Below are positions 2,252-58,062 of a stretch of 64,000 nt of DNA, piece by piece (within the stretch, counting starts at the first letter, position 1; the number at the start of each line of letters is the position of its first letter). Position numbers and translations under genes: made by a program. Under the pieces are notes generated by a model. The model was not told where the DNA came from. It did no database searches and saw nothing but the letters and a program-made list of their open reading frames with translations. Location of the stretch: assembly GCA_027923505.1 (NCBI GenBank), contig BROI01000015.1, forward strand, positions 124,001-188,000, read 5' to 3'. The DNA is from Mayamaea pseudoterrestris (Eukaryota).

Positions 2252-3178
2252 ATGCGAATACTCCAAGCCCTTTGTCGGGCAGCAATAATCCATCTACACT
2301 TATCAACTGCCGCAGGTATGGCGCCTAAAATTCGCGTCATTGATTCGCATTTACATGTTTGGGCAGATACGCAGGAAGCAGCCAATGCCTTTCCATATGC
2401 TCAGCCACCGCCAGAGACAATCAAGAATGATGGATCGATCGATGCTTTGATTAAACAAATGGATTCGAATGGAGTCGACGGAGCCTTGGTAGTGCAGCCA
2501 ATCAATCACAAATTTGACCACTCATACGTCATACAAGCGATCAAGGATCATCCTCATCGGTTCAAGGGCATGTTGCTACACGATCCGGATGACAACGATC
2601 CGATAGCACGTATAGAAGAGCTATGTTTAAAAGGTTTTGTTGGCGTCAGATTCAATCCCTATCTGTGGCCAAGGACTGGTGACAAAAAGTGGAAGTCCAT
2701 GGCTGAAGGGATTAGTTTGGATGTTTATAAAAGGTGCGGCGAATTGAAATTACCAGTCGGGATCATGTGCTTTCAGGGAATCTCCTTGCATTACGATGAC
2801 ATTGTGCAGTTGCTGGAACAATCACCAGCCACTATGTGCATCTTAGATCACTTTGGATTCACTTCACTTAAGAATTCCCTATCATTTGAGCAACTTCTGT
2901 CGCTGTCCAAGTATCCACAACTCTACGTTAAAATTTCGGCACTCTTTCGACTTGGAGGTGTTCATCCTTACGACAAAGTAAAGGAAGAGCGCTTCTTGCC
3001 GCTACTGCGAACCTTTGGGTCGAAGCGACTCTTGTTTGGATCCGACTTTCCGTATGTTTTGGGGCAGCCTGCAGCCTACTCGGTCCACAAACTTGTTGAA
3101 GCATGGATAGAAGATGTACAAGACAGACGAAACATCATGAGTCAGACGGCGGAGCGGCTTTTTGGCGCATGGAGTTAA
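2252..3178 (+). CDS. Amidohydrolase family protein (Amidohydro_2, TIM barrel)
   Basis: Metal-binding motifs IDSHLHVW, LDHFG, VKIS and FGSDFP. Possible short N-terminal presequence. Confidence 0.85.
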   Translation: MRILQALCRAAIIHLHLSTAAGMAPKIRVIDSHLHVWADTQEAANAFPYAQPPPETIKNDGSIDALIKQMDSNGVDGALVVQPINHKFDHSYVIQAIKDHPHRFKGMLLHDPDDNDPIARIEELCLKGFVGVRFNPYLWPRTGDKKWKSMAEGISLDVYKRCGELKLPVGIMCFQGISLHYDDIVQLLEQSPATMCILDHFGFTSLKNSLSFEQLLSLSKYPQLYVKISALFRLGGVHPYDKVKEERFLPLLRTFGSKRLLFGSDFPYVLGQPAAYSVHKLVEAWIEDVQDRRNIMSQTAERLFGAWS

Positions 3179-3313
3179 GATAATTGTTGAATCTAGCATA
3201 TGGAATGTTTGGCTGGTTTGTGTCGTTCGAGTCTACGATGTCATGTCACTGCCACAGATCTAGCTACAAGCGACGAAGCTCTCGATTTGCTTAATACTTA
3301 GCAGCTTTACCCA

Positions 3314-4003
3314 TTACGCCAATTTGGCTTTAATATGTTGCGTGGCCGCATCCAACTGCGCCTTTTTCGATGGGTCTTTGAGCATGTCTTTCATCGCTTC
3401 CTGATACATTTGAAACTCTGGGTCCTTGGTCATTGCTTCCAGTTGCCGAGCAAAATTTGGGTCCTTGAGCATCTTTGTCATTTCTGCCATGACCTCAGGA
3501 TTGGTCAAGGCGGCTTGCATGGCAGCTTCCATACTCGCGCCGGCTTGGTCCTTGAGTTGCTCCTGTCCAATCTTTGCCATGGTCTCAATCTTGGCTTCGG
3601 CTTTGGCCGCTTGGTTTGGGTCACTGAGGAGATCCTTTGTTTGCTTCAAATTTTCTTTGAACTCCTTCGAGTTTTGTAATTTCTTCATTTCTTTCTGGAA
3701 TGCTGGGTCTGACATCATTCTTTTGGCCTCGGCCATGAGTTCTGGATTCTGGAATGTAGCAATACAAGAGCAAGTAAGCACACATGACAGTTGCATCATA
3801 TGTCAAAATAATGTAAGATTAACTGAGCTTACATTCATGTCTTGCAGCAATTGGGCAAGGATGGCAGGGTCTGACGCCGCCTCTTTAAGACCTTGCATTC
3901 CCAAGGTGACATCGGCCATGGCTTGCCTTCGAGGGTCGACCTTATCATCGGATCGGACAAAGACAGCAACTACTAGTACTATGAGTACTTTAGGAAACAG
4001 CAT
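3314..4003 (-). CDS. Secretory-pathway STI1/DP-repeat protein; exons 4003-3833 and 3748-3314
   Basis: Signal peptide MLFPKVLIVLVVAVFVRS. Repeated DP/NP helical motifs (SDPA, NPEL, KDPN, KDPE). Intron 3832-3749 (GTAAGC...TTCCAG, 84 nt) joins two track ORFs in frame. Confidence 0.75.
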
Positions 4004-4273: not shown

Positions 4274-5561
4274 ATGAGAATACCATCACAGTACACGAAG
4301 CTGTTTGCCATCTTTTCTTCATTGTGCTACTTGGTCACAGCTGCCCAGGATTTTTACAAGCTTCTCGGAGTATCCAAAGATGCAACTGTGAAAGAAATAA
4401 AGAAGGCGTATCGTCAAAAGAGTCTCGAATTTCACCCTGACAAGAACAAGGATGAGAATGCAGCCGAAACGTTTTCACAGATTGCAAGAGCTTATGAGGT
4501 CCTTAGCGACGACGAAAAGAGAAAAATTTATAACCGACACGGCGAAGAAGGTTTAAAACAGCATGAGCAACAGTCTGGAATGCAAGATGGATTCGGGGGA
4601 GGCTTTGATGATATTGTGAGTGATTCCGGGCTGGCAGTTGTCGTCATGTTAATTCGACGTATCGCTGTTACGTTCGAAGTATAGCGTTGGGCGATTTGAC
4701 ATCGTTTGCATAATACCAACGCCTCGTACCTGCATATTACTCACACCCTTTTTTCAATGAATTTAGTTCAGCCACTTTTTTGGTGGTGGTGGCGGTGGTG
4801 GAGGTCGTCGGCAACAGCGTGAACGGCAAACGCCAAGTGTTGAACTACCCATGTTTTTGACGCTGCAACAGTTGTACCTGGGCGAAACCTTCCACATTAA
4901 CTACGAGCGTCAAGTCTTATGTCTCAATTGGGAAATGTGTCTCAAGTCGGCTCCCGAATGCCAAGGGCCTGGTGTCAAGGTCATTCGACAACAAGTGGCG
5001 CCAGGTTTTGTCCAGCAATTTCAGCAACACGACAGTTCCTGCGTCGCCCAGGGCAAGCGGTGGAAGACTCCATGCTCATCATGTCCACAAAAGACACAAA
5101 CAGAGTCGATACCACTAACGGTTGATATACAAAAGGGAATGCGTGATGGTGAAATTATCACATTCGAGGGAGTGACGGACGAACAGCCTGGACACACTCC
5201 TGGTGATTTGAAGGTTGTGATTGTGGAGCAACCGAACGATACGTTTCATAGAGATCGCGACGATTTATACAAAACATTTGAGGTTCCATTGGTCGATGCA
5301 CTCACTGGATTCTCCATTTCACTGACACACCTCGACGACAAGGAGTTTACAGTGCAAGTCGAGGATGTGACGGACTGTGACCACGTCTTACGTGTACCTG
5401 GCAAGGGAATGCCGAGACGAAATGGTCGTGGGTTTGGAGACTTGTATCTCACGTTTGAGGTTGACTTTCCGGACCGCCTTACGGTAGAGCAAAAGAAGGC
5501 TATTCGAGAGATCCTTGGCGATAGTGGGGACTCAGTAAATATCAAGAATGGCGAATTATAG
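4274..5561 (+). CDS. ER-luminal DnaJ/Hsp40 (ERdj3/DNAJB11-like); exons 4274-4615 and 4767-5561
   Basis: Signal peptide, J-domain with HPD, G/F region, Cys-containing domain, DnaJ-C (PGKGMP...GDLY) and C-terminal NGEL (KDEL-like). Intron 4616-4766 (GTGAGT...TTTAG) is phase 0. Confidence 0.9.
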
Positions 5562-21925: not shown

Positions 21926-22107
21926 AAACCTTCATTCCGATGCTCGTCGAACCTATAATGCGTTTGTTCTTCGCACCATAGCTAAAACGTCACAGTGTCA
22001 CACCTACTTATCGCGAAAGAGCTACATCATGCACTTACTGATAACTGTAAATGAAAACGTATTGCTTACCTTTCCACCGGAAGTCAACAAAGACGCCAAC
22101 TGTTTGT

Positions 22108-23787
22108 TTATTTAGCCAATGCTACTCGCCCAGGTTGAAACTTTAGGATCTGCTGTAGCTTCGCCCTATTGAAAGGGGCGCGGATAAAATCGCCAGACTC
22201 GCTTCGTCGGTCAATTTGAACCAAGCCATGATCCGTCAACTCGTTTAAAAACGAGTCAAGCCCCGAATCTTTGGCGATAATGTGGGAGTTCTTGCACTGT
22301 TTTCGAAAGACCGGCATTTTAACCCACGACTCCTCTAAAGTTTGCTCCAATTGCAGCTTTGCCAAAACTTGCATCACCTCCGTGTGCCGAGGGGCAAGTA
22401 ATTCAAGCACTCCCTCAACGCGTTCAATCCGTTCAAGTTGTGATAACTCTGCTTTGTGTATAGCAGATTTCTTCTTTGATTCCGAAAGCATGACAAGTTC
22501 CTTCACATATGGTCGGTAAGTATGCAGCGGCAAGTAAATCCACGCCAAGTTCGCGGCGACATGTGAGGTAAACATGAGCTCTGAGGCCGAAATATGATCG
22601 ACACTTGCCACAAGACGTATTGCGTGCGCATTAACCTCCACGTTGCTATTGACGACCAAAGCTGCTAGTGCGTCTGTAGCAAGCTTACTACGCAGTGAGT
22701 CTCCATCCAAGCTATGAATGACGAGAAAAATTGGCAAAAGCGATTCGCTCGCCTCGTATGCGCATGCTCGGCCGACCAAAATGGCCCGTTCCACCAACGC
22801 ATGAGCTCGCCAGGGAATTGACTCGCCAAGTACCTTATGTGTCCCGTCATGACTTTCGATCCGTCCTTTGGAAACTGGCTCATTACCACCCAGAAACTGA
22901 TTGACAAGCAAGTCAAGAACTTTTGTCATGCTAATGTCTTTGTCGAAGCCATCTATTTGCAACACATATCCTTCCTTGCGTAATTCTTGGTCACAAAACT
23001 TGGTCAACAAGTCGTACTTTGACCCAGCCCCCAGAAACAAGAGCGAATGGTTGGTCGAGAGCAGAAAGCGCCAGTGTGGAAATGCAGGCTTGTAAGATTC
23101 TTCGTATTCTGCAGCGTCTTTGTGGAGGTGATTGTTTTCTTGAAGATGGCGCGCAACTTGTGAGATGGAAGGTAATTGCAATTGTTCGTCCAAACGAGCA
23201 CTATTAGTCGTAACAGGAGCTCTCTTGCGTTTCAGATTAAGTGCCCTTTTGCCATGCAAGTACAGATCCGTACCGACATCGGTCTGCGTGGTGGATCCTT
23301 GCTTGCTGCTCGGTAGCGTATTTCGTCTCGTATTACTGGTTGCGCCTTCCTCCATGACGTGCTCGGGCTCGAATTTGTTGGGTTTGCTTTCATGCCTTAA
23401 GCGTTTGTTCAACTCATCCTTTGTATTTTCAAACATCATCCGCAGTGCCTGCCGACGGATTTCCATTCCTTGCTCGACTTCTTCCTTTGTTTGAAAATCT
23501 TCATTGGAGGTGACGAGCTCCAGAGTACTATAAACGTCCGGGAGAGCATATTGGTCCAAGTACGCCATTACTTCCTCCCATCTGTCAAAACGTGGCCCGT
23601 TCTCGGCGGGTGCTTGATACTGATACCCAGTCACTGAGAGAGTCGTTGTTCGATACGACCATCCAGCTTGTTGCAGGCAGTTCCAAACGAAGGCGTACTC
23701 AAACTCTTGGAACTTGAATCTAACTTCGATGGCCTTGTGTGTTTCATCAATTTTTAACTCACTCATGATTCTTAATGGTATGATCAT
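22108..23787 (-). CDS. ORC2: Origin recognition complex subunit 2
   Basis: FPHWRFLL...SLLFLGAGSKYDLL..F, LVIHSLDG..LR, LVASVDH, T.RPY..E, C-terminal winged helix ELTDHGLV. Confidence 0.9.
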   Translation of the reverse strand: MIIPLRIMSELKIDETHKAIEVRFKFQEFEYAFVWNCLQQAGWSYRTTTLSVTGYQYQAPAENGPRFDRWEEVMAYLDQYALPDVYSTLELVTSNEDFQTKEEVEQGMEIRRQALRMMFENTKDELNKRLRHESKPNKFEPEHVMEEGATSNTRRNTLPSSKQGSTTQTDVGTDLYLHGKRALNLKRKRAPVTTNSARLDEQLQLPSISQVARHLQENNHLHKDAAEYEESYKPAFPHWRFLLSTNHSLLFLGAGSKYDLLTKFCDQELRKEGYVLQIDGFDKDISMTKVLDLLVNQFLGGNEPVSKGRIESHDGTHKVLGESIPWRAHALVERAILVGRACAYEASESLLPIFLVIHSLDGDSLRSKLATDALAALVVNSNVEVNAHAIRLVASVDHISASELMFTSHVAANLAWIYLPLHTYRPYVKELVMLSESKKKSAIHKAELSQLERIERVEGVLELLAPRHTEVMQVLAKLQLEQTLEESWVKMPVFRKQCKNSHIIAKDSGLDSFLNELTDHGLVQIDRRSESGDFIRAPFNRAKLQQILKFQPGRVALAK

Positions 23788-24026
23788 TCATGGCGCTCAA
23801 GCTGCGGGACCACAAACTGTGTGGTGTGAGGGGGTTTTGTCGCCTCTCGCGCGCGCGACGGCGCGGCGCGGATTGGCAGTCAATGTCGCACCAAGATTTG
23901 ATCTCGACGCTAGCAGCTATTGCTTTGGAGGATATATAACGCTGCCAACTAATTCATAATGGAATTCATTACGAGAGAAATATAGTGTCGTTTCTCTAAG
24001 CCTAGCTTATTCGCATTGATCCATCT

Positions 24027-24869
24027 TCAGTGTGTCGAACAAAGTAGGGACGAGCTCGCCTTTGTGATGACAACTTTTTGATAAAGACCTTGAAAAAAGA
24101 CGTCTTTCCGCATGCTATAGCCAGTTGCCTTTGGCAGCCAATCAGTAATTTGACTTTTCCAGAGATCCATGGCGAATGGCTCGAGCGTGTGGAAAACAAA
24201 CGGCATGAAATAGCGATGAAAGCTCCATCTAGTAGGCCGATGATAATCAATAATGATAAGCTTGCCACCATCGGCCAGTACTCTCCAAGCTTCTGCTAGA
24301 GCTTCTCGACGCGCTTGTTTTGGAAGCTCGTGGAGTAGAAAGAACATCACCACTTGCTCTCGACTGGCATTCGAAATATTGGTTAGCTTTGTGGCATCCG
24401 ATAACATCAAGCCAACCTCCTTGTCCAATGCTCCGGCAGCTTCCAGCTTGGTTCTCAAGTTCTCAATCTGTATTGGGGCCACGTCCACAACATCTAGCGG
24501 TGCCCTCATGCCAAGCGCAAGTCTCGTCGTGACGTTGCCGTAAGCACAAGCTATTTGAAGAGTCGTCTTGTCTGGATTAATTTCTCGAAGCATTTCAGTC
24601 GCGAGCAAATTGTAATTGCCCCATAGAATCGCATTAACAATCCAGTCTCGCTCGAATAACTGAACTCCTTTTGGATGAAGATACGCCCACCAGTATGTGT
24701 CGACGAGGTATGCTGGAATAATAGTTGAAGTGGCAGGTCGAGCTTGACTTTTGGGATGAGGCAGAGTCCCACAGCTTTTATCGTGAAAGAAGCTCGAGCT
24801 GGAGCTCATTCTCGCCCTTGGGATTAACCACAGGCGTCGGTAGAGTGAAATTCGATGTAACATGTTCAT
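24027..24869 (-). CDS. rquA: Rhodoquinone biosynthesis protein RquA, with mitochondrial-type presequence
   Basis: RquA-specific blocks IPAYLVDTYWWAYLHP, FERDWIVNAILWGNY, LQIACAYG (degenerate SAM motif I), VVDVAPIQ, FFLLHELP, DYHRP, LEPFAMDLW and GLYQKVV. The N-terminus is Arg-rich and acid-free. Confidence 0.92.
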   Translation of the reverse strand: MNMLHRISLYRRLWLIPRARMSSSSSFFHDKSCGTLPHPKSQARPATSTIIPAYLVDTYWWAYLHPKGVQLFERDWIVNAILWGNYNLLATEMLREINPDKTTLQIACAYGNVTTRLALGMRAPLDVVDVAPIQIENLRTKLEAAGALDKEVGLMLSDATKLTNISNASREQVVMFFLLHELPKQARREALAEAWRVLADGGKLIIIDYHRPTRWSFHRYFMPFVFHTLEPFAMDLWKSQITDWLPKATGYSMRKDVFFQGLYQKVVITKASSSLLCSTH

Positions 24870-25074
24870 TTTAAGTATGGGAAGATGGAAAGTGATGAGC
24901 GTGGGAAACGGAAGAACAAGATCTCATCGTAGTCGAGGTTCGGTTTCGTGCATGACAATCAGCGAGCTGTCGCAGCGCGTCTTAACGAAGAAGCAACGCA
25001 TCATCGCGACCAGCATGGAATGCCCAAGCTTTCTTCCGTCTCCGCCTACCTTTTAATTCAAGCAGAGGAAACGG

Positions 25075-25386
25075 ATGATTCAACTTACAGTGGAATGCAG
25101 CTGCGAACAGATGCAAGTCAACGATCCAAGAGAAGTGGCAACAATTTTACAATGTAGTCTTCGCGAACTTTACGGGGACTTTGATTCATATGGCTGCAGT
25201 CGCATTCAAGTCCTTAATTCTAGTGAAAGAAGTGAGATCGGTTGTTTCCTAGTGACATGTCCAGAAGAATCAGAACAAGCTGTTCGAGCTGCATTGACTT
25301 GGATAACACCGCCTCCGTATCTCGACAGCAACATTTATCGATTTGACGTTGTCGGCCACACTTCGATCGAGAGTGAGCTAGCATAG
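25075..25386 (+). CDS. Probable RNase P/MRP subunit of the Rpp14/Pop5/Pop8 family
   Basis: Pattern L..LYG....G...I.VL......FLV.C.......VRAALT in a 103-aa alpha/beta protein. Confidence 0.55.
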   Translation: MIQLTVECSCEQMQVNDPREVATILQCSLRELYGDFDSYGCSRIQVLNSSERSEIGCFLVTCPEESEQAVRAALTWITPPPYLDSNIYRFDVVGHTSIESELA

Positions 25387-28959: not shown

Positions 28960-29839
28960 CTAGTGAGTACTTTGACCACCTGCCAAGGCGGAGTTGATGC
29001 CGCCACCTAAACGGAATGCCTCGGCTGTTGCATCGACACACTCTAATCGCTCATCTGGCGACCAGCTCGCCGCCATTTCCTCTATGCTCTGCTTGACTCG
29101 AGCTTTGATGGCGTTCAAATCTTCTTTCCACTATAAAAAGTATCATAGATGGACATTATAAAAGATTGAGTGCAAGTTTTCGAGCAAAAGATTTCCAACA
29201 CTCGAGTATGACTGCTGCGCGTACCTTGTAGAATTCTAGTGTCTTTTTGTTCAACAAAAGCGAGCTCATTTGCTTGCCGATCATGCGTCCTCCAGCCGTA
29301 TGAGCAAAGTAGAAGTTGTAGAAGTGACACATGAATTCTGGAATGGATTGGATGCTTCGTAGCTTGGTTGCATATTCGACTCCGGACGGTCTGACGGAAG
29401 GTCGTTCCAATCCATATTCTTGTATCATGAATGCAAAATCCGTATCCAACGCTGTCGTTCTTTCCAAGCCAGTGTTTCGATATGCTTTTAACTCATCTTT
29501 ATCGTTGACAATCTCTTCCATTGCTTCATAAACATGCTTAGAATCCACAAGGAATTGTAGGTAATCACTGCGAGTTGTCACGTACGGATCTTTCTTCGGC
29601 GTTTCCGCTGCCTCTCCTTCCTTGGGTGCCTGAGATCTCGTGTGGAGTCGCATAGCCGCTCCTCTAAGCTCTGTCTCAATGAACGATCCTGCCACCGTCT
29701 TGGTGGATAAGGAAAGGTGGGTTGATGATTTCGGCAAAATTGTTCGCGGAAGCACAGAAATCGTGAAGCTTTCCACGACGGCAGAATTAAAGGCAAATGC
29801 TGCCAAGCCCAGTATCCTGGGCGCATTGTGTACTCTCAT
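28960..29839 (-). CDS. Plastid heme oxygenase (plant HO1-like); exons 29839-29225 and 29130-28960
   Basis: Signal + VESF motif; ELRGAAMRLHT (proximal His), FLVDSKHVY, HFYNFYFAHTAGGRMIG, LEFYK|W. Intron 29224-29131 (GTACGC...TATAG). Last exon WKEDLNAIKARVK...GGQSTH*. Confidence 0.92.
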
Positions 29840-39021: not shown

Positions 39022-40560
39022 ATGAGGATCTTCACATTTCTCTGGTTCTTTCAGTCGAGCTATCTTGTCACGGAAGTGAAAGGATTCGTCGCAACAAGCA
39101 GCTCATATGCGCCAACACGGCAGCCTTGGTTGACCATCGATAGAGCCGAAAGCAGCGAATCAACGTTGGCCGCTTTTCTTGGATCACAAAATCTGGCTGA
39201 AGGGCCTTTGAACTCAGTACCGACGAGTATCACCCTGAGCTTTAATTTGCATTCTTCCATTGATGATATTCCTGCCTTTGAGTGGGATGCTTGTCTGACG
39301 AAGGAGTCTTCTCCATTTGTACAACACTCCTGGCTAAGATGCATGGAGCAATCTGGATGTGCCGCGCCAGATAAGGGATGGGTAGCTCAGCATCTTTCAA
39401 TCCAAGTGAATGGACAGACCCAAGGCTACGTCCCATTGTACATCAAGGGGAACTCGCTTGGAGAGTTCATCTTCGACCAGCAATTTGCGGAAGCCGCCTA
39501 CGACAATGGCATTCAGTATTACCCAAAATTGCTTGTCGGAGTTCCCTTCACTCCGGCGACTGGTCAAAGAATATTGTGGAAACCCTTTGTGTATGAGACT
39601 CTTGCGTCGGATTCACGCACCATGAAGGCGCTACGGCGAGCCGTTGGTCAATTTCTTAAAGAGATCGCTTTGTCGAACGACATTTCATCGGTTCACATCA
39701 ATTTTTTACGCGACGAAGAAGCGACTGATCTAACTGTTCCGCTCGAATGCTTGACTGCCAGCGATGGCTCTGTATCTAGCTCCTTCCTCGACCGATTGAT
39801 CGGTAAGCCGGTTGAAGATACGTACATGCGACGAACGTCCCTTCAATATCACTGGATCAATAGCAATGTCAAGAATGAGGGGGAATTATTTCGCGACTTT
39901 GATGACTACCTCAGTTGCTTTAAAAGCAAACGCCGGATTACTGTCAAGCGCGAGCGCTGCTCGGTCTTGGAGGAGTCAAGCATTCGTGTTGATCCGATTG
40001 TCGGTCGAGAGATACTCAAGTACAACGGACTTGTGGAGCGCATGTTTGAAATTTACCTGTCGACCATCGATAAAATGGTATGGGGGCGGCAATACTTGAC
40101 GGTGGAGTTTTTCCAAATGCTTGCGAAATCGGACTTTATCGACAACTTGTGCTTTATGTGTGCGCGACGAGCTGACTCTGGCGATGAGCTACAAGCAAAA
40201 CATGTCTTTGCTGGCACATTTAATATTATTAAAGACAAAGTATTCTACGGACGCTATTGGGGTTGTTTGCCGGAATATGACGTGAAGAATCTCCACTTTG
40301 AGGTGTGCTACTGGTCGGCCATTGACTACTGCATAAAAAATGGACTGAAACGAATGGAACCTGGCGCTGGTGGTGGCGACTACAAGTGGGCTCGTGGGTT
40401 CGATCCATCATTGATTCATTCAGTCCACTATATATGCCACCCTGGGCTTCGAAGAGCGGTGGGCAGGTTTCTCGATTACGAGACAGAAAATAACGTTGAG
40501 CTTACGCAGTACTTATTGGAAAGGAGTGCTGTCGGGAGCAACAGAACGGCCACGGATTGA
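39022..40560 (+). CDS. FemAB-like (DUF482) GNAT acyltransferase, plastid-targeted
   Basis: PF..H.WL..ME.SG, PLYIKGNSLGEFIFD, YYPKLLVGVPFTPATGQR, YGRYWG, LHFEVCYW, EPGAGG..K..RGF.P. Signal + VKGF motif. Confidence 0.9.
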   Translation: MRIFTFLWFFQSSYLVTEVKGFVATSSSYAPTRQPWLTIDRAESSESTLAAFLGSQNLAEGPLNSVPTSITLSFNLHSSIDDIPAFEWDACLTKESSPFVQHSWLRCMEQSGCAAPDKGWVAQHLSIQVNGQTQGYVPLYIKGNSLGEFIFDQQFAEAAYDNGIQYYPKLLVGVPFTPATGQRILWKPFVYETLASDSRTMKALRRAVGQFLKEIALSNDISSVHINFLRDEEATDLTVPLECLTASDGSVSSSFLDRLIGKPVEDTYMRRTSLQYHWINSNVKNEGELFRDFDDYLSCFKSKRRITVKRERCSVLEESSIRVDPIVGREILKYNGLVERMFEIYLSTIDKMVWGRQYLTVEFFQMLAKSDFIDNLCFMCARRADSGDELQAKHVFAGTFNIIKDKVFYGRYWGCLPEYDVKNLHFEVCYWSAIDYCIKNGLKRMEPGAGGGDYKWARGFDPSLIHSVHYICHPGLRRAVGRFLDYETENNVELTQYLLERSAVGSNRTATD

Positions 40561-51497: not shown

Positions 51498-53138
51498 CTA
51501 ATTGTCAAACTGTAGTTGTACCTTTGCAGTTGTTGAAGGCGATTGTGAATCAGAAATCATTGTTCTGAGCTTGGAAGCAGCCGCCTCGATGGTCTCGTCA
51601 GATTTACAAAAGGCTATCCGAATAAATCCGTCCGACACTCCTTTCTCAGCCTGCTCTTGTGAAAAGAATGGGCTCGAAGGGATGCACAAAAGGCCTTTCT
51701 CTTCTGCCATCCATTGACACAGCGCCCAGTCTTGCCGAGCGATACCTCCAGGCGCAGCCACGTTTGCAGCAAATATTCGATCCTCGGGAACAAGTTCTTG
51801 TATTCCCTTTCCTATCCGAGCAAAAATGAAAAAACCACCGCCAGGCGTAATGCTAAAATTGGGAACAGCAAAACCAGCTTCTGTCAAAGCCGCGACAAGC
51901 ATGTCACGTTTCCGCATGTATTTTTCGCGTAAGTAGTCATAGTAAGAGTCATGCCCTTCATATGGATCATCCGCTCGTGGCAAACTCCTTGCCAAAGCTT
52001 CTTGCATCACAGTTGACGCACAAAATTGCACATAAGGCAGTAGTTGGTGAATTGGCCGTATCAAATGCTCGGGTCCGATGCACCAACCCACTTGCCAGCC
52101 CGTCGCCGAGAACGTTTTCCCAGCTGAGCTGATTGTTATGGTTCGATCCCACATCCCAGGCAAGGACGCGAAATGGACATGGCCGCGGCAAAACAGCGAT
52201 TCGTCTTCAGCACGTGCTACCGGAGGTGCATGGACAATATACTTGTACACTTCGTCCGACAAGACGACGCAGTCTGGATTGGCAAGCTCCAAAGCTTCCG
52301 CAATATACTCCATCTCACTTCGGGAAAAAAGTTTACCAGTTGGATTGTGTGGCGAGTTCAGAATGATGGCACGAGTCTTTGGTCCCACTGCCTTCTTCAA
52401 CAAGTTAAAATCTAGTTTCCATTCTCCTCCGGTGCTTCTTTCGCTGTCCCCTTCGTTGTCAGGTAAGTATGGACAAAAGACGAGAGGGACGTATACGGGC
52501 GTCCCTCCGGCCAATTTAACTTGATTCTGATATAGGTCAAAGAAAGGCTCAAACAAAATCACTTCGTCGCCATGTTCGACCAGTGTCTGTAGTGATAAGT
52601 AGAGCGCTTGGCTAGCGCCAACAGTGACTGCAACCTGGGTGAATGGATGAATATCGCGCCGCAAGTGTTTTTGATATCGACTCGCTAGCTGCTTGACAAG
52701 ATTGGGGTGGCCTTCAGTTCTTGTATACTGATGGGGCGACTGAGCCGAGTCCAAGACTGCTTCAACGAGACTGTCGACGGCGAACTTTGGTGGAAGCCAA
52801 TCCGGAAAGCCTTGACCAAGATTGACTATGTCGGCCTTGTCTCGTGCGATTCTTGAAAACTCAGTCCAAACAGTTGGTTTGGCATCGATCCCAAGCCGCC
52901 GAATTGCTTCACCAATCCTGCTGTTCAACAACGCTGAACGGGGTTCTGAAATATCGGTTTGATCCGAAGGGTTTGCCCCTTCGCTGGGCCATGGTCGTTC
53001 ATTTAAGTGACGGCCAGCGTAATTGTTCCGTGATCCGACGATTGTGTTTCGTGAGCTGGAAAAAGACAGCAATGCGCATGATTCAGTAAACAATAAAACA
53101 ACTTGACTCGCCACTTTTATCAAGGTGCATGATTTCAT
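51498..53138 (-). CDS. Class I PLP aminotransferase (kynurenine/glutamine transaminase-like), probably plastid-targeted
   Basis: NLGQGFPD, QYTR..GHP.L, EPFFDLY, LNSPHNPTGK, SDEVY, SAGKTFSATGW (PLP Lys), IRIAFCK. Signal + Ser-rich transit. Confidence 0.9.
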   Translation of the reverse strand: MKSCTLIKVASQVVLLFTESCALLSFSSSRNTIVGSRNNYAGRHLNERPWPSEGANPSDQTDISEPRSALLNSRIGEAIRRLGIDAKPTVWTEFSRIARDKADIVNLGQGFPDWLPPKFAVDSLVEAVLDSAQSPHQYTRTEGHPNLVKQLASRYQKHLRRDIHPFTQVAVTVGASQALYLSLQTLVEHGDEVILFEPFFDLYQNQVKLAGGTPVYVPLVFCPYLPDNEGDSERSTGGEWKLDFNLLKKAVGPKTRAIILNSPHNPTGKLFSRSEMEYIAEALELANPDCVVLSDEVYKYIVHAPPVARAEDESLFCRGHVHFASLPGMWDRTITISSAGKTFSATGWQVGWCIGPEHLIRPIHQLLPYVQFCASTVMQEALARSLPRADDPYEGHDSYYDYLREKYMRKRDMLVAALTEAGFAVPNFSITPGGGFFIFARIGKGIQELVPEDRIFAANVAAPGGIARQDWALCQWMAEEKGLLCIPSSPFFSQEQAEKGVSDGFIRIAFCKSDETIEAAASKLRTMISDSQSPSTTAKVQLQFDN

Positions 53139-53402: not shown

Positions 53403-55097
53403 ATGCTGCGACTGGCTGCTGCTTCATCAAAGGTGGTTACGTTGCATACGCTTCGGGGTACCGAACGAGCATTCTGCTCTGCAACCACCAGTGCTCCTCT
53501 CGCACGCCGCAGACCTGGTCGCGTGTTTGGAGGCGCCTTGGCGATAACGACGCTCGGAGGATTTGTTTACATGCATGATGAACTTGGAGGTTTCGAAGGC
53601 CTTTCTCGATCGCTGTCGTTTTACAGTGTCGCCATTCCAAAGTATATTGTCTACCGATTTCACAGCTGGCGACAGAGTCCTGATCATGTCTGGGACGAAC
53701 TCGACAAGGAAACGTCGCAGCAAGGCCTGGATAAGATTTTGGAATTGCAAGGATTTTATGTCAAAGCAGGTCAAATGTGCGCCGCAAACATTGGAAACGC
53801 GTTTCCCGTTATTTGGCGAGACACTATGAGCATCTTGCAGGACCAAGTGCCCGCCCAACCGTTTTCCGTTGTTCGAGAGATTGTATCGAGGGAACTTGAC
53901 TTTGCGCAAACATTCCAGTCATTTGAGGCAGAGCCGATTGGAGCTGCCTCAATCGGTCAAGTGCATCGGGCCATTTTGAAGGATGGTACACGCGTGGTTG
54001 TTAAAGTTTGCTATCCTAATGTGGAGCGTTTGCTCCGAGGCGACGTGCGGACCATCAAGCTGTTTGCGAGACTGGCGCAGCCTGTTCATGTTCCGTCGCT
54101 CGAAGAAGTCGAGGATCAATTTTCGAGAGAGTTCGACTATCGGCAAGAAGCACGAAATCTGGAGCTAGTGCGAAACAATTTACAAAGGGCTGGATTGCTG
54201 GGAATTCTATGCCAAGTCCCGAAGCCGTACCTCAATTTGTGTACGAAGAACGTACTTGTGATGGAGGAGTTGATAGGCGACAAGCTGGTAGACGCTTTGA
54301 GGCAGGATCTTAAGAATAATGCTGAGCGAAATGGGCAAACGGTGGAGCAATTTACGGATAGTGTCAAAAGTAAGGTGAAGTACCTCGAGGGTGCGACCGG
54401 TCCACCTGTTGGACCAACGGCCAAAGATTACGACTTGTATATCAATTTACTGGACTCAAAACGACGCCTGTACAATGCTTGGGTAACGCTATATAACATG
54501 ACACTCGGCTTGGTTGGAGCGACAAAACGTAATTACATGGACAAGAGCAACCTGCCAATTAACCATGCCAAGCTCCTCGACGAGTTAATTTACATTCAAG
54601 GACATGAAGTCCTTGTTGACGGCAAATTTAATGCCGATCCCCATCCTGGAAATATTTTGGTTTGCCGAGCCGCCGATGGAACTCCACAACTCGGTCTAAT
54701 TGATTACGGACAGGTCAAAGATATTGACTCAAAGGAGAAACGCCATTTATTTGCCAAGATCGTCATAGCACTTGACAACGACGATCGGTCAGAAGTTGTT
54801 CGCCTTATGAAAGAAGCTGGATTTAAGTCAAAGCGAATGGATCCCGAAGTCATTTGGTTGTACGCAAAGGTTTGCTACGACGACGACAATGCTGAACTCA
54901 CAGGAGGCAAGCATATTCAAATGTTTATGGAAGACATAGAAGCGCGTGATCCAATTATGGAGCTCCCAAAGGACTTTATTATGGTTAGTCGCTGCACACT
55001 GATGCTTCGAGGCTTATGCCATGCCATGTTACAGAGCCGCAGCATTGCTAGGGCTTGGCGACCTATCGCTGAGCGTGTATTGCGAGAGGACATATAA
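53403..55097 (+). CDS. ABC1/UbiB (ADCK) atypical kinase, probably mitochondrial
   Basis: GFYVKAGQ, LQDQVP, PIGAASIGQVHRA, VVVKV, EFDYRQEARN, ADPHPGN, IDYGQ. Confidence 0.92.
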   Translation: MLRLAAASSKVVTLHTLRGTERAFCSATTSAPLARRRPGRVFGGALAITTLGGFVYMHDELGGFEGLSRSLSFYSVAIPKYIVYRFHSWRQSPDHVWDELDKETSQQGLDKILELQGFYVKAGQMCAANIGNAFPVIWRDTMSILQDQVPAQPFSVVREIVSRELDFAQTFQSFEAEPIGAASIGQVHRAILKDGTRVVVKVCYPNVERLLRGDVRTIKLFARLAQPVHVPSLEEVEDQFSREFDYRQEARNLELVRNNLQRAGLLGILCQVPKPYLNLCTKNVLVMEELIGDKLVDALRQDLKNNAERNGQTVEQFTDSVKSKVKYLEGATGPPVGPTAKDYDLYINLLDSKRRLYNAWVTLYNMTLGLVGATKRNYMDKSNLPINHAKLLDELIYIQGHEVLVDGKFNADPHPGNILVCRAADGTPQLGLIDYGQVKDIDSKEKRHLFAKIVIALDNDDRSEVVRLMKEAGFKSKRMDPEVIWLYAKVCYDDDNAELTGGKHIQMFMEDIEARDPIMELPKDFIMVSRCTLMLRGLCHAMLQSRSIARAWRPIAERVLREDI

Positions 55098-55154: not shown

Positions 55155-58062
55155 CTAAGTCTCTTGAAAGGCGACCTTATATACGGCGTCGTAATTCTCT
55201 GCATAATGCACTTCCAGTCCTTCTTTCAAATAGTCTGCAACTTCCTCAAAATCTCGGCGATTGGATTCTGGAAGGATGACGCAGGTAATTCCAGCTCTTC
55301 GGGCTCCCATAATCTTTTCTTTTATTCCCCCAACAGGCAACACCTTCCCAGTTAGACTTACTTCGCCCGTCATGGCCAAATCGCATCTAACAGGCGAGTC
55401 AAGAGCCAGCGACAACATGGAAGTGATCATTGTAACGCCAGCCGAAGGCCCATCCTTCGGTGTGGCACCTTCCGGAACGTGGCAGTGAATGTCGTTTTGG
55501 TCAAAGAATTTGCTCGCTGGATAAATAGCATGAAGACGAGCTCGTGAGACTGTATACGCAATCTGTGCGCTTTCCTTCATCACGTCTCCCAGTTGCCCGG
55601 TAATTTTCATCGATCCTCCCCCATTTGGATTTCCCTCACTATCGGTGCTGCGTTTGATGCTCTGCGTTTCAATGTACAACGCAGAGCCTCCCATGGAAGT
55701 ATAGGCGAGGCCCATGGCAATGCCACTGGGCAATGGGTCGTCTTGATAAAGTCGGTCACTTGTGAATATGGGTTTGCCGACATAATCTGAAAGATTTTCC
55801 TCCGTTATCTCCCAGCCTGACTTTCTTTTACTCTTTGCATTCAGTTCCGCTCCTTCATCTTCAGCTACAAACTGCAACGCAAGCTTGCTTGTTATCTTGT
55901 CTATGTATTTCGATAGGCTTCGCACGCCAGCTTCTCTCGCGTACCAACGGACTAGGTTGTGCACAGCCTCCGTTGAAATCTTTAATGTCTCGGGGATCCC
56001 AGGAGCATGTTTTAACTTTTCCAGTGGGGTAGTCAGACTTTCATCAGAAGCACTCGGAGATTCCGCGCCATCTGAATCTTTCGAAATGGAATCCTTCTCT
56101 ACCATAAGGCCGCTTTTCTGCAAAGACTTCGGCACTAGATAATTCTCAGCAATGGCGACTTTCTCTGGCAAATCATACCCAGACATTCGAATGTACTCCA
56201 TTCGATCCAACAGGGGCGCTGGAATTCTTTCCAGCTCGTTGGCCGTACAAACGAACAAAGCTTTGCTGATATCAACCGGTACGTCCAGAAAATGGTCACG
56301 AAACGTAGAGTTTTGGTTTGGATCCAAGACTTCAAGCAAAGCACTCGCAGGGTCCCCGCGAAATCCGCTTCCGAGCTTGTCTATCTCATCAATGAGGATG
56401 ACTGGATTTGAAGTCTTCACTGTCTTGAGGCACTGAATCACCTTCCCAGGCATCGCCCCAATATACGTTCGTCTGTGACCTTTAATCTCACTGACGTCGC
56501 TAAGTCCACCAACACTAAATCGATAAAATTCTCGACCAAGACCATCGGCAATAGACTTGGCAATTGATGTCTTTCCTGCGTCAAGATATATCCAACTGGC
56601 TAAGTGCGCTTCATCAACCTTCAAACTCACGACGAGCTACTAAAAAATACATACCTGTCCCCGGTGGACCAGCTAGACAAAGAATTTTGCCTTGTACCGA
56701 TCCGTGGAGTTTCCCGACTGCAATAAACTGCAGAATCGTGTCCTTGACGTCTTCCAACCCATAGTGATCTCGGTCAAGAATCTGTCTTGCCTTTGTAATG
56801 TCAAAATTCTCTTCCGTCAATACACCCCATGGAACACCGCACAACCAATCCAGGTAGGTGCGAGTCACCTGGTATTCTGGTGACTGCTTTTCGAGTGTTG
56901 AGAATTTGCTTATTTCCGATTCGATAACCTCCATAATGTCGTCTGGAATGCCATCCTTCGGATATGCAGTAAGCTGCGCTCGATATTTCTCAATGAGAGC
57001 ATCCTTATCGTCCTTTTCTAACCCTAATTCTTTCTTAATCGACTTGAGTTGTTCATTTAAAAAGTATTTGCGTTGGGCTTCCGTCATTTTCTCTTCCACC
57101 TTTTGACTAATTTCCTGCTGCAGTCTCGATACTTCGCGCTCGCGACTTAAAAGCACCAGCGCCAAGTGCAATCGCCGCTCTGGATCCTTCTCCTCCAAGA
57201 CTGCCTGCAAATCTTCCGGTGTTCCCGACGCGCATATACTAGCTGCAAAGTCTGCGAGCTTGAAAGGATCATTCGCGTCAACTCGCATTGGACTAAACTG
57301 CAAGTTTTCTCGAAAGAGTTGATTGGATTGCGCAACCTCTCGAATAGTTGCTAGAATTTCGTTCGTCAATGCACGAATTGTTTCACTATTCGGACTTCCT
57401 GCGTAGTATTCGCTGCGAGGCCAGTGTGAGACGGTGACATCAATCGGCGGCCCAATATTGTCAATTGATTTAATGTCGACCCGTCGGTGAGCGAGCAAAA
57501 GTACGGCAGCACCGGTAGACGTCTCTTCTTGGTCGGTCTCTGTATCTGCAGAACCAGTCGTTTTAAGTCCACTTGCTCCAGCCATGTGAATACCTCGCGT
57601 GAGTCGTTGAACCTGCGCAAAGGTTCCAGTGTGATACAAGTCGTCGGTGCTCGTAATGACCTCGGGCGCATGAAGTAAAACACCTCCATCCGCCACGCCA
57701 GATGGATATTTCTTGCGCAAAAAGCAGCTAATAAATGGATTCTCATGAGTATTCTTTTGCAACAGATTTTCGATAGCGACAATGGTTGGTTCATCGGTGA
57801 GTGTGACCGTCGTGATCAGGCTTGGAAACAAAGGTCGAGAAACAAGGGGGAGTGCCAAGCAATGTGGATATCGAGGTGCCCCTTCACCGAATGGAAGCCT
57901 AGACGGCAGAACAACCGAATCACCACTTGTAGACGTTGCTGATGCATCTTTGAAGAAGATGTTAGCATGACTTCGAGTGCAGCCGAGAGACGAAGTTGGA
58001 AAAGATCGAGGACTTAGCGTTCGAAGCGAACTTCTCGTCGTGATCCGCAGCGCTTGAATCAT
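55155..58062 (-). CDS. LONP1: Mitochondrial Lon protease; exons 58062-56655 and 56575-55155
   Basis: Lon N-domain; Walker A GPPGTG|KTS split by intron 56654-56576 (GTATGT...CGCAG, 79 nt); IDEIDK; PKDGPSAG (catalytic Ser); GGIKEK (Lys). Confidence 0.96.

Follow-up and report, generated by a model that had tools for sequence, protein, structure and literature searches.

The window analysed, a stretch of 64,000 nucleotides, is gene-dense eukaryotic nuclear DNA. A first Pfam scan covered 30 of its ORFs, 25 of which had a family at E 1e-5 or better, and gave U1-70K, ORC2, Paf1, CNOT11, CLU, ZPR1 and RNase P p30 (Rpp30), as well as RBM22-like, Lon, lipoyl synthase and other proteins. A second scan had 20 ORFs, five of which had been in the first scan and were repeated with a looser threshold; it brought to these ribosomal S23, DnaJ, an NF-Y/histone-fold protein and an Rpp14/Pop5-like protein. 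Among the ORFs submitted to these two scans (30 + 20, five repeated), none is a light-harvesting or photosystem gene, a result that speaks neither for nor against photosynthesis in the host. The gene of interest, rquA, is located between ORC2 and the Rpp14/Pop5-like gene, from which it diverges (Table 1). The 205-bp spacer between these two divergent genes is presumed to be their shared promoter region.

Table 1. Positions in the window of rquA and its parts, of the neighbouring genes and spacers, and of the other ORFs discussed in the text
Feature	Position	Strand	Remarks
DnaJ protein, two adjacent ORFs	4274-4684 / 4851-5561	+	about 160 bp apart
ORC2 (origin recognition complex subunit 2)	22108..23787	-	Pfam PF04084, 123.8 bits, E 9.4e-36
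Spacer, rquA stop to ORC2 start, 239 bp	23788..24026		rquA 3' end and ORC2 promoter; from ORF positions
rquA CDS	24027..24869	-	280 codons and stop, intron-free; coordinates include the stop codon
RquA catalytic core, residues 51-270	24060..24719	-	class I SAM-dependent methyltransferase fold, degenerate motif I
N-terminal extension, residues 1-50, putative mitochondrial presequence	24720..24869	-	outside the RquA model
Spacer, rquA to Rpp14/Pop5-like gene, 205 bp	24870..25074		divergent genes; from ORF positions
RNase P/MRP subunit, Rpp14/Pop5 family	25075..25386	+	PF01900, 25.5 bits vs. cut-off 23, E 1.5e-5
Heme oxygenase	29156-29839	-	
ORF of 512 aa, FemAB_like family	39022-40560	+	PF04339, 342 bits
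Class I/II aminotransferase	51498-53138	-	
ABC1/UbiB-type atypical kinase	53403-55097	+	PF03109, 158 bits; UbiB model 161 bits, below cut-off
Lon protease, two adjacent ORFs	55155-56453 / 56614-58062	-	about 160 bp apart

Concerning the host, the best named relatives of the lipoyl synthase of the window are all diatoms (Nitzschia inconspicua 71%, Amphora coffeaeformis 70%, Seminavis robusta 68%), so that this DNA most likely comes from a diatom, and most likely from a pennate one. Other relatives of the same enzyme include an MMETSP record of Amphiprora type and two further proteins at 79-81% identity. Both the heme oxygenase and the aminotransferase have hydrophobic, signal-peptide-like N-termini followed by Phe-containing motifs, an arrangement that looks like bipartite complex-plastid targeting and hence indicates a host with a plastid. 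Also, both the Lon protease and the DnaJ protein are encoded by a pair of adjacent ORFs, and the gaps within the pairs are presumably short introns, in which case the genome has introns even though rquA has none. Two other ORFs deserve mention: the FemAB_like one belongs to a bacterial-type family and may be another gene of bacterial origin, and the atypical kinase, which has an Arg-rich, mitochondrial-looking N-terminus, is possibly a COQ8-like ubiquinone-biosynthesis factor. The kinase gene is 29 kb away from rquA, and its nearness is probably a coincidence.

The initial annotation had described rquA as an intact, intronless ORF of 280 amino acids, and this description is borne out: the reading frame runs from ATG to stop on the minus strand, the ORF listing has no further in-frame start codon between the upstream stop and the ATG at 24869, and the alignment to homologues has no internal gaps that would suggest an intron. 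The encoded protein begins with MNMLHRISLYRRLWLIPRARMSSSS. Every sequence block that had been listed as RquA-specific is found in its translation, namely YWWAYLHP (residues 59-66), ILWGNY (81-86), QIACAYG (105-111), VVDVAPIQ (127-134), FFLLHE (176-181), LEPFAMDLW (229-237) and GLYQ (261-264).

Against the NCBIfam equivalog model of RquA (NF038261), the ORF scores 262.2 bits with a cut-off of 175 (E 3.9e-78), a match far beyond chance, in which residues 51-269 align with positions 1-217 of the 218 of the model. The next NCBIfam family, CpaM, reaches 58 bits (cut-off 180); among the UbiE/MenG models, with cut-offs from 158 to 420, none exceeds 38 bits. As for Pfam, only generic methyltransferase domains were returned, PF01209 among them at 33 bits. 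The distinction from UbiE/UbiG, on which the initial annotation had made the assignment depend, thus falls clearly on the side of RquA, inside which the gene is also placed by the phylogeny described below. As judged from its sequence, the window ORF is a genuine RquA orthologue and not a generic methyltransferase of the UbiE/UbiG kind.

An AlphaFold2 model of the protein, built on a 14-sequence alignment, has a pTM of 0.74. Its core is a Rossmann-type methyltransferase with a block-mean pLDDT of 83-96 over residues 81-210, dipping to 60-65 at residues 211-230, and residues 1-45 are below 50. The best PDB match of the model is yeast Coq5 with SAM (4obw_B, E 2.5e-12, TMt 0.70). No solved RquA structure was found in the PDB by sequence search, which matched only two distant methyltransferases. 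In motif I, which is degenerate, LQIACAYGN stands opposite LDVGCGVGK (AtmM) and LDVGCGIGK of two solved methyltransferases, ACAYG thus replacing GCGxG; A107, C108, Y110 and G111 do not vary in the 14-sequence alignment. An altered SAM-binding motif I, with the other motifs kept, is given as a trait of RquA by Stairs et al. 2018 (PMC5953543), citing Lonjers 2012. With the UbiE/MenG/Coq5 C-methyltransferases, the window RquA therefore shares the fold and a distant similarity, visible in the PF01209 hit and in the structural match to Coq5, and it differs from them in the low scores of their models and in a motif I that is not GxGxG.

The 14 aligned sequences have 66 columns that are invariant in 14/14, all of which are kept in the window RquA. 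They include D129 and D158, the latter aligning with the Asp of the DA motif in solved methyltransferases; the two residues are 29 positions apart, vs. 24 in the bacterial sequence P0044. Spacing and position make them the likely equivalents of D118 and D143 of the Rhodospirillum rubrum enzyme. For that enzyme, Neupane et al. 2022 (PMC9814641) describe the formation of rhodoquinone from ubiquinone with SAM as the amino donor and Mn2+ as the cofactor, a first stretch of 40 residues that is dispensable, a D118A/D143A double mutant that is dead and, in vitro, a requirement for oxygen or another oxidant.

The 50 residues that precede the RquA core are rich in Arg and Ser, almost without acidic residues and without a signal-peptide core. 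The first 25 residues contain 5 Arg and 5 Ser/Thr, with no Asp or Glu; for the N-terminus, the maximum helical moment is 0.60 and the maximum 15-residue mean hydrophobicity 0.07, vs. a maximum hydrophobicity of 0.56-0.62 for the signal-peptide-type N-termini of the heme oxygenase and the aminotransferase. Counted over the same length, RquA has 5 R/K and 0 D/E, and the lipoyl synthase, Lon and the ABC1 kinase have 4-5 R/K and 0-1 D/E; the N-terminus of ORC2 has four acidic residues. The extension thus has the make-up of a mitochondrial presequence, as had been proposed, and resembles its mitochondrial neighbours in this respect. Extensions of 45-61 residues, also Arg/Ser-rich, are found in 5/5 of the closest homologues (P0002-P0006). 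Upstream of the internal Met21, P0002 and the window RquA have in common an R-[IL]-SLY-R-L stretch, an argument for Met1 or Met3 as the start of translation. According to Stairs et al. 2018 (PMC5953543), all full-length RquAs of eukaryotes bear a predicted mitochondrial signal, and that of Pygsuia was localised to the mitochondrion-related organelle. From the composition of the extension, on which the presequence call is based, we infer on good grounds that the window RquA would be imported into mitochondria.

The relatives of the protein were collected from several sources. In a collection of 5.8 billion clusters, 6011 of 6862 candidates matched the window RquA; among the matches listed, P0002-P0006 are 59-67% identical to it, and the other 114 clusters listed are 47-55% identical, with mostly bacterial names where named. 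A 50%-identity library gave 1077 proteins at E 0.001 or better, 86 of them at 1e-30 or better, P0002 scoring 381 bits and the next one, P0043, 242 bits. In the genome collection, 478 loci were confirmed, and the best 80 of these 478 are all bacterial (43-52% identity), belonging mainly to Rhodoferax and other Burkholderiales, Competibacteraceae and Chromatiaceae. Among 101 stretches matched in a scan of metagenome contigs with the window protein, six encode a relative (45-51% identity), none of which falls in the window clade. The ESM Atlas, searched in its clusters of at least 50 members, holds bacterial and no eukaryotic RquA clusters, which says nothing on rarity. The five closest homologues and ten eukaryote-like neighbours all pass the NF038261 cut-off (15/15 tested, 220-286 bits). 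Named members were found in the clusters of two relatives among 17 proteins, and these are Fragilaria crotonensis and Petalomonas cantuscygni. Our guess, made from their N-terminal extensions, is that P0002-P0006, P0043, P0252, P0254 and P0255 come from diatoms or other algae.

Since it has no intron, and since its nearest named relatives outside the small window clade are bacteria, rquA could be suspected of being a bacterial contaminant, or a mis-assembly, in a diatom contig. This explanation is so improbable that it can be set aside. In runs X1 and X2, from two studies, unbroken contigs cover positions 22011-24866, from ORC2 through the spacer to the start of rquA, with the same depth over rquA as over its flanks; they contradict a mis-assembly of the kind that the initial annotation had considered, and they exclude contamination. 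The assembly may have been made from one of the two runs, so that they amount to at most one independent confirmation of the junction. The composition of the gene is that of its host: its GC is 47.2% and its GC3 47.9%, vs. 49.1 ± 2.0% and 49.8 ± 3.3% in 35 other long ORFs, its codon-usage score ranks 14th among 36 window ORFs, and bacterial rquA homologues have a GC of 53-71%. The N-terminal extension of eukaryote type and the low identity to bacterial sequences, only 43-52% for the best 80 of 478 loci, also speak against a contaminant. With its ORC2 and Rpp14-like flanks, rquA belongs to the nuclear genome of a diatom-like eukaryote, as had been assumed.

The rquA ORF is intact and free of indels in the contigs of four runs (two studies). 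Five base differences were found among the runs, three of which are in the core and all synonymous (L71, P132 and L191); the two replacements, R44Q (extension) and H280N (last residue), both fall in unconserved termini. In this small sample, the variation points in the direction of purifying selection. Runs X3 and X4 gave low-depth contigs over ORFs, including rquA (24015-24345 and 24127-24875), which were not counted as evidence of expression, since contigs do not reveal where transcripts end. Near the start of ORC2, at window position 23750, a 6-base in-frame deletion is present in contigs of X1, X2 and X3, and about 40 single-base differences were listed over 5 kb; these differences point to strain or allele variation.

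As for the phylogeny, 179 candidate rows were available, of which 55 covered fewer than 200 of the 253 profile positions and were dropped. In a quick tree of the 124 rows left, the window clade comprises 10 rows (SH-aLRT 100) and lies within a set of 31 rows (99), together with the published diatom group, five further long-extension sequences and two gammaproteobacterial MAG sequences. A more careful tree was restricted to 65 of the 124 rows (6 of the window clade, 8 of the published-type group, 6 neighbours, 20 named bacterial loci and 25 other rows, including 8 Group-A-like ones), four membrane-anchored bacterial rows with long branches being left out; it was rooted on the Group-A-like rows, and its bootstrap was not fully settled. 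In this tree, the window clade has a support of 100/100 and the published diatom group with P0289 98/99, and the window clade is joined by P0043 and P0255 at 84/89. The node that joins these clades to one another and to 34 bacterial and ciliate-like rows is without resolution. Forcing the window clade and the published diatom group into monophyly costs 5.9 log-likelihood units, with a borderline AU p of 0.051 for a grouping that was defined after a first tree had been seen; that all diatom RquAs go back to one origin is hence neither shown nor cleanly rejected. At the least, the window clade forms a subfamily of its own, with 42-45% identity to the published diatom group.

The window RquA is nested among bacterial RquA sequences, and the rows nearest to it score as RquA. 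The nesting is what is expected for an old transfer and agrees with the lateral acquisition proposed in the initial annotation. The placement inside RquA stands, and the donor group, which a tree had been expected to reveal, does not come out of it. Two gammaproteobacterial MAG sequences (Chromatiaceae), L006 and L022, stand beside the eukaryote-like clades in quick trees only; in the careful tree they move to the base of the Group-B-like side, so that no bacterial donor can be named.

Several bacterial rows of the trees call for a comment of their own. A MAG labelled Synechococcaceae (L037, RquA match at 3001-3660) carries an RquA nearly identical to that of a Competibacteraceae MAG (L016, match at 3001-3693), with branches of 0.09, and is most likely a binning error, not a case of cyanobacterial rquA. 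The RquA copies of 'Anaerolinea' MAGs (L015 and L054) are placed among proteobacterial ones. P0366, P0372, P0387 and P0392 are RquA-like proteins with an N-terminal hydrophobic helix and a very long branch (1.53), and P0366 scores 163.5 bits on the RquA model, just below the cut-off of 175.

The tree also bears on whether the protein could be a derivative of RquA with a changed substrate or a lost activity, i.e. a relic or a neofunctionalised methyltransferase-like protein. The window clade has ACAYG where most relatives have ACVYG, and NLLATE vs. RLRDAA, and the end branch of P0001 is fairly long (0.54). We nevertheless find such a derivative quite improbable, for the score on the RquA model is as high as that of bacterial orthologues, no invariant column of the 14-sequence alignment is lost, the core differs among strains by synonymous changes only, and the same architecture is found in five related sequences. 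A functional RquA is the reading retained in what follows.

RquA in diatoms has been in print since 2018, and the novelty attached to its presence in such an organism by the initial annotation was overstated. In the Group B of Stairs et al. 2018 (PMC5953543), 'a diatom group' is included, with MMETSP sequences of Attheya septentrionalis, Staurosira complex sp. and Synedropsis recta, and a mitochondrial signal is predicted on the Attheya protein. Matched by eye, not by alignment, P0276, P0264 and P0260 are close relatives of these three published diatom RquAs, and it is through such representatives that the published group enters our trees; the 90% cluster of P0276 also includes Fragilaria crotonensis KAI2497385.1, whose annotation goes no further than methyltransferase domain protein. 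In open full text, subscription journals lying outside the search, we found no measurement of rhodoquinone in a diatom and no discussion of diatom RquA beyond the mention by Stairs et al. 2018. What is new is a genomic, syntenic and composition-matched copy of rquA in a pennate-type diatom, and the evidence for a small clade separate from the published diatom RquA group.

With that published group, the window gene shares a diatom host, the recognition as RquA by NF038261 (220-246 bits for the published-type proteins), a long Ser/Arg-rich extension and its position on the same side of the Group A/B-like split; it differs by the 42-45% identity, by the separate, well-supported clades and by its motifs, LEPFA and VAPIQ in the window clade vs. 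YEPFA and VVPAQL in the published group. Like the RquA of R. rubrum and other bacteria, it has a full-length equivalog match, a Coq5-like fold, a degenerate motif I and two invariant Asp. Unlike them, it is nuclear, of host-like composition and without linkage to respiratory operons, it bears a 50-residue eukaryotic N-terminal extension, and its identity to bacterial loci is confined to the range given above. A further parallel is that of Pygsuia, Blastocystis, Euglena and the heterotrich ciliates, in which a laterally acquired rquA was likewise supplied with a mitochondrial targeting sequence, and in which the use proposed in the literature runs from complex I through rhodoquinone to a reversed complex II. 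Those protists are known or facultative anaerobes, in some of which rhodoquinone has been measured, whereas the host of the window gene is a plastid-bearing diatom. Also, the window gene lies outside Group A, in which the RquAs of Pygsuia, Blastocystis and Euglena are placed.

Diatoms already possess other strategies for dark anoxia, and a survival based on nitrate has been described for them. The reading that we favour, and hold to be probable, is that of a functional nuclear rquA of a pennate-type diatom, whose mitochondrial product would make rhodoquinone for fumarate respiration. The gene itself would have come from bacteria by an old lateral transfer, possibly via another eukaryote, and would afterwards have taken on the base composition of the host and a targeting sequence. 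Translation would begin at the first ATG, and the Arg/Ser-rich N-terminal ~20-50 residues would direct the protein into mitochondria. There, by orthology, the Coq5-like core would bind SAM and Mn2+ and replace a methoxy group of ubiquinone by an amino group from SAM, yielding rhodoquinone, whose quinol has a lower potential than ubiquinol. Under the scheme outlined by Stairs et al. 2018, here extended to the diatom, complex I would keep pumping protons without oxygen, and complex II, in reverse, would work as a fumarate reductase. Read in this way, the window rquA probably serves low-oxygen respiration in mitochondria. The oxidant needed by RquA in vitro has one consequence for timing, since rhodoquinone may be produced ahead of anoxia and not in the course of it.

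The same oxidant requirement (PMC9814641) would also suit an active mitochondrial RquA that makes rhodoquinone for a main role other than fumarate respiration in dark anoxia, for instance as a low-potential quinone for other quinone-linked enzymes or for redox balancing between light and dark or between oxic and hypoxic conditions. Such a role would fit a host that is seemingly an otherwise aerobic diatom, and according to Stairs et al. 2018 (PMC5953543) RquA-bearing eukaryotes keep, in addition to complex II, several enzymes that use quinones. It has been demonstrated nowhere, and in the accounts of Stairs et al. 2018 and of a 2026 sponge preprint rhodoquinone is tied to fumarate reduction wherever studied; we regard it as unlikely, though less so than a relic or a neofunctionalised protein. 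Fumarate respiration by way of a mitochondrial RquA remains our preferred role for the gene.

Diatoms buried in sediments or biofilms live through long spells of darkness without oxygen, and the means by which their mitochondria do so are understood only in part. With an rquA that is intact and apparently maintained by selection in a diatom chromosome, there is genomic proof that the diatom hits of the 2018 transcriptomes were not contaminants, and the window gene becomes a single-gene test case for the use of rhodoquinone by plastid-bearing algae besides Euglena. Should the window clade prove separate from the published diatom group, it would be one more instance of repeated rquA transfer among eukaryotes. 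Going further, we put forward as a tentative proposal, which we would not yet bet on, that the window gene stands for a second lineage of RquA in diatoms, apart from that of Attheya, Staurosira, Synedropsis and Fragilaria, and that pennate, probably benthic, diatoms respire fumarate via rhodoquinone in dark anoxia. Were this true, diatoms would have two genes for rhodoquinone synthesis, acquired separately or kept after an old duplication, and fumarate respiration in sediments and biofilms would run alongside nitrate-based survival.
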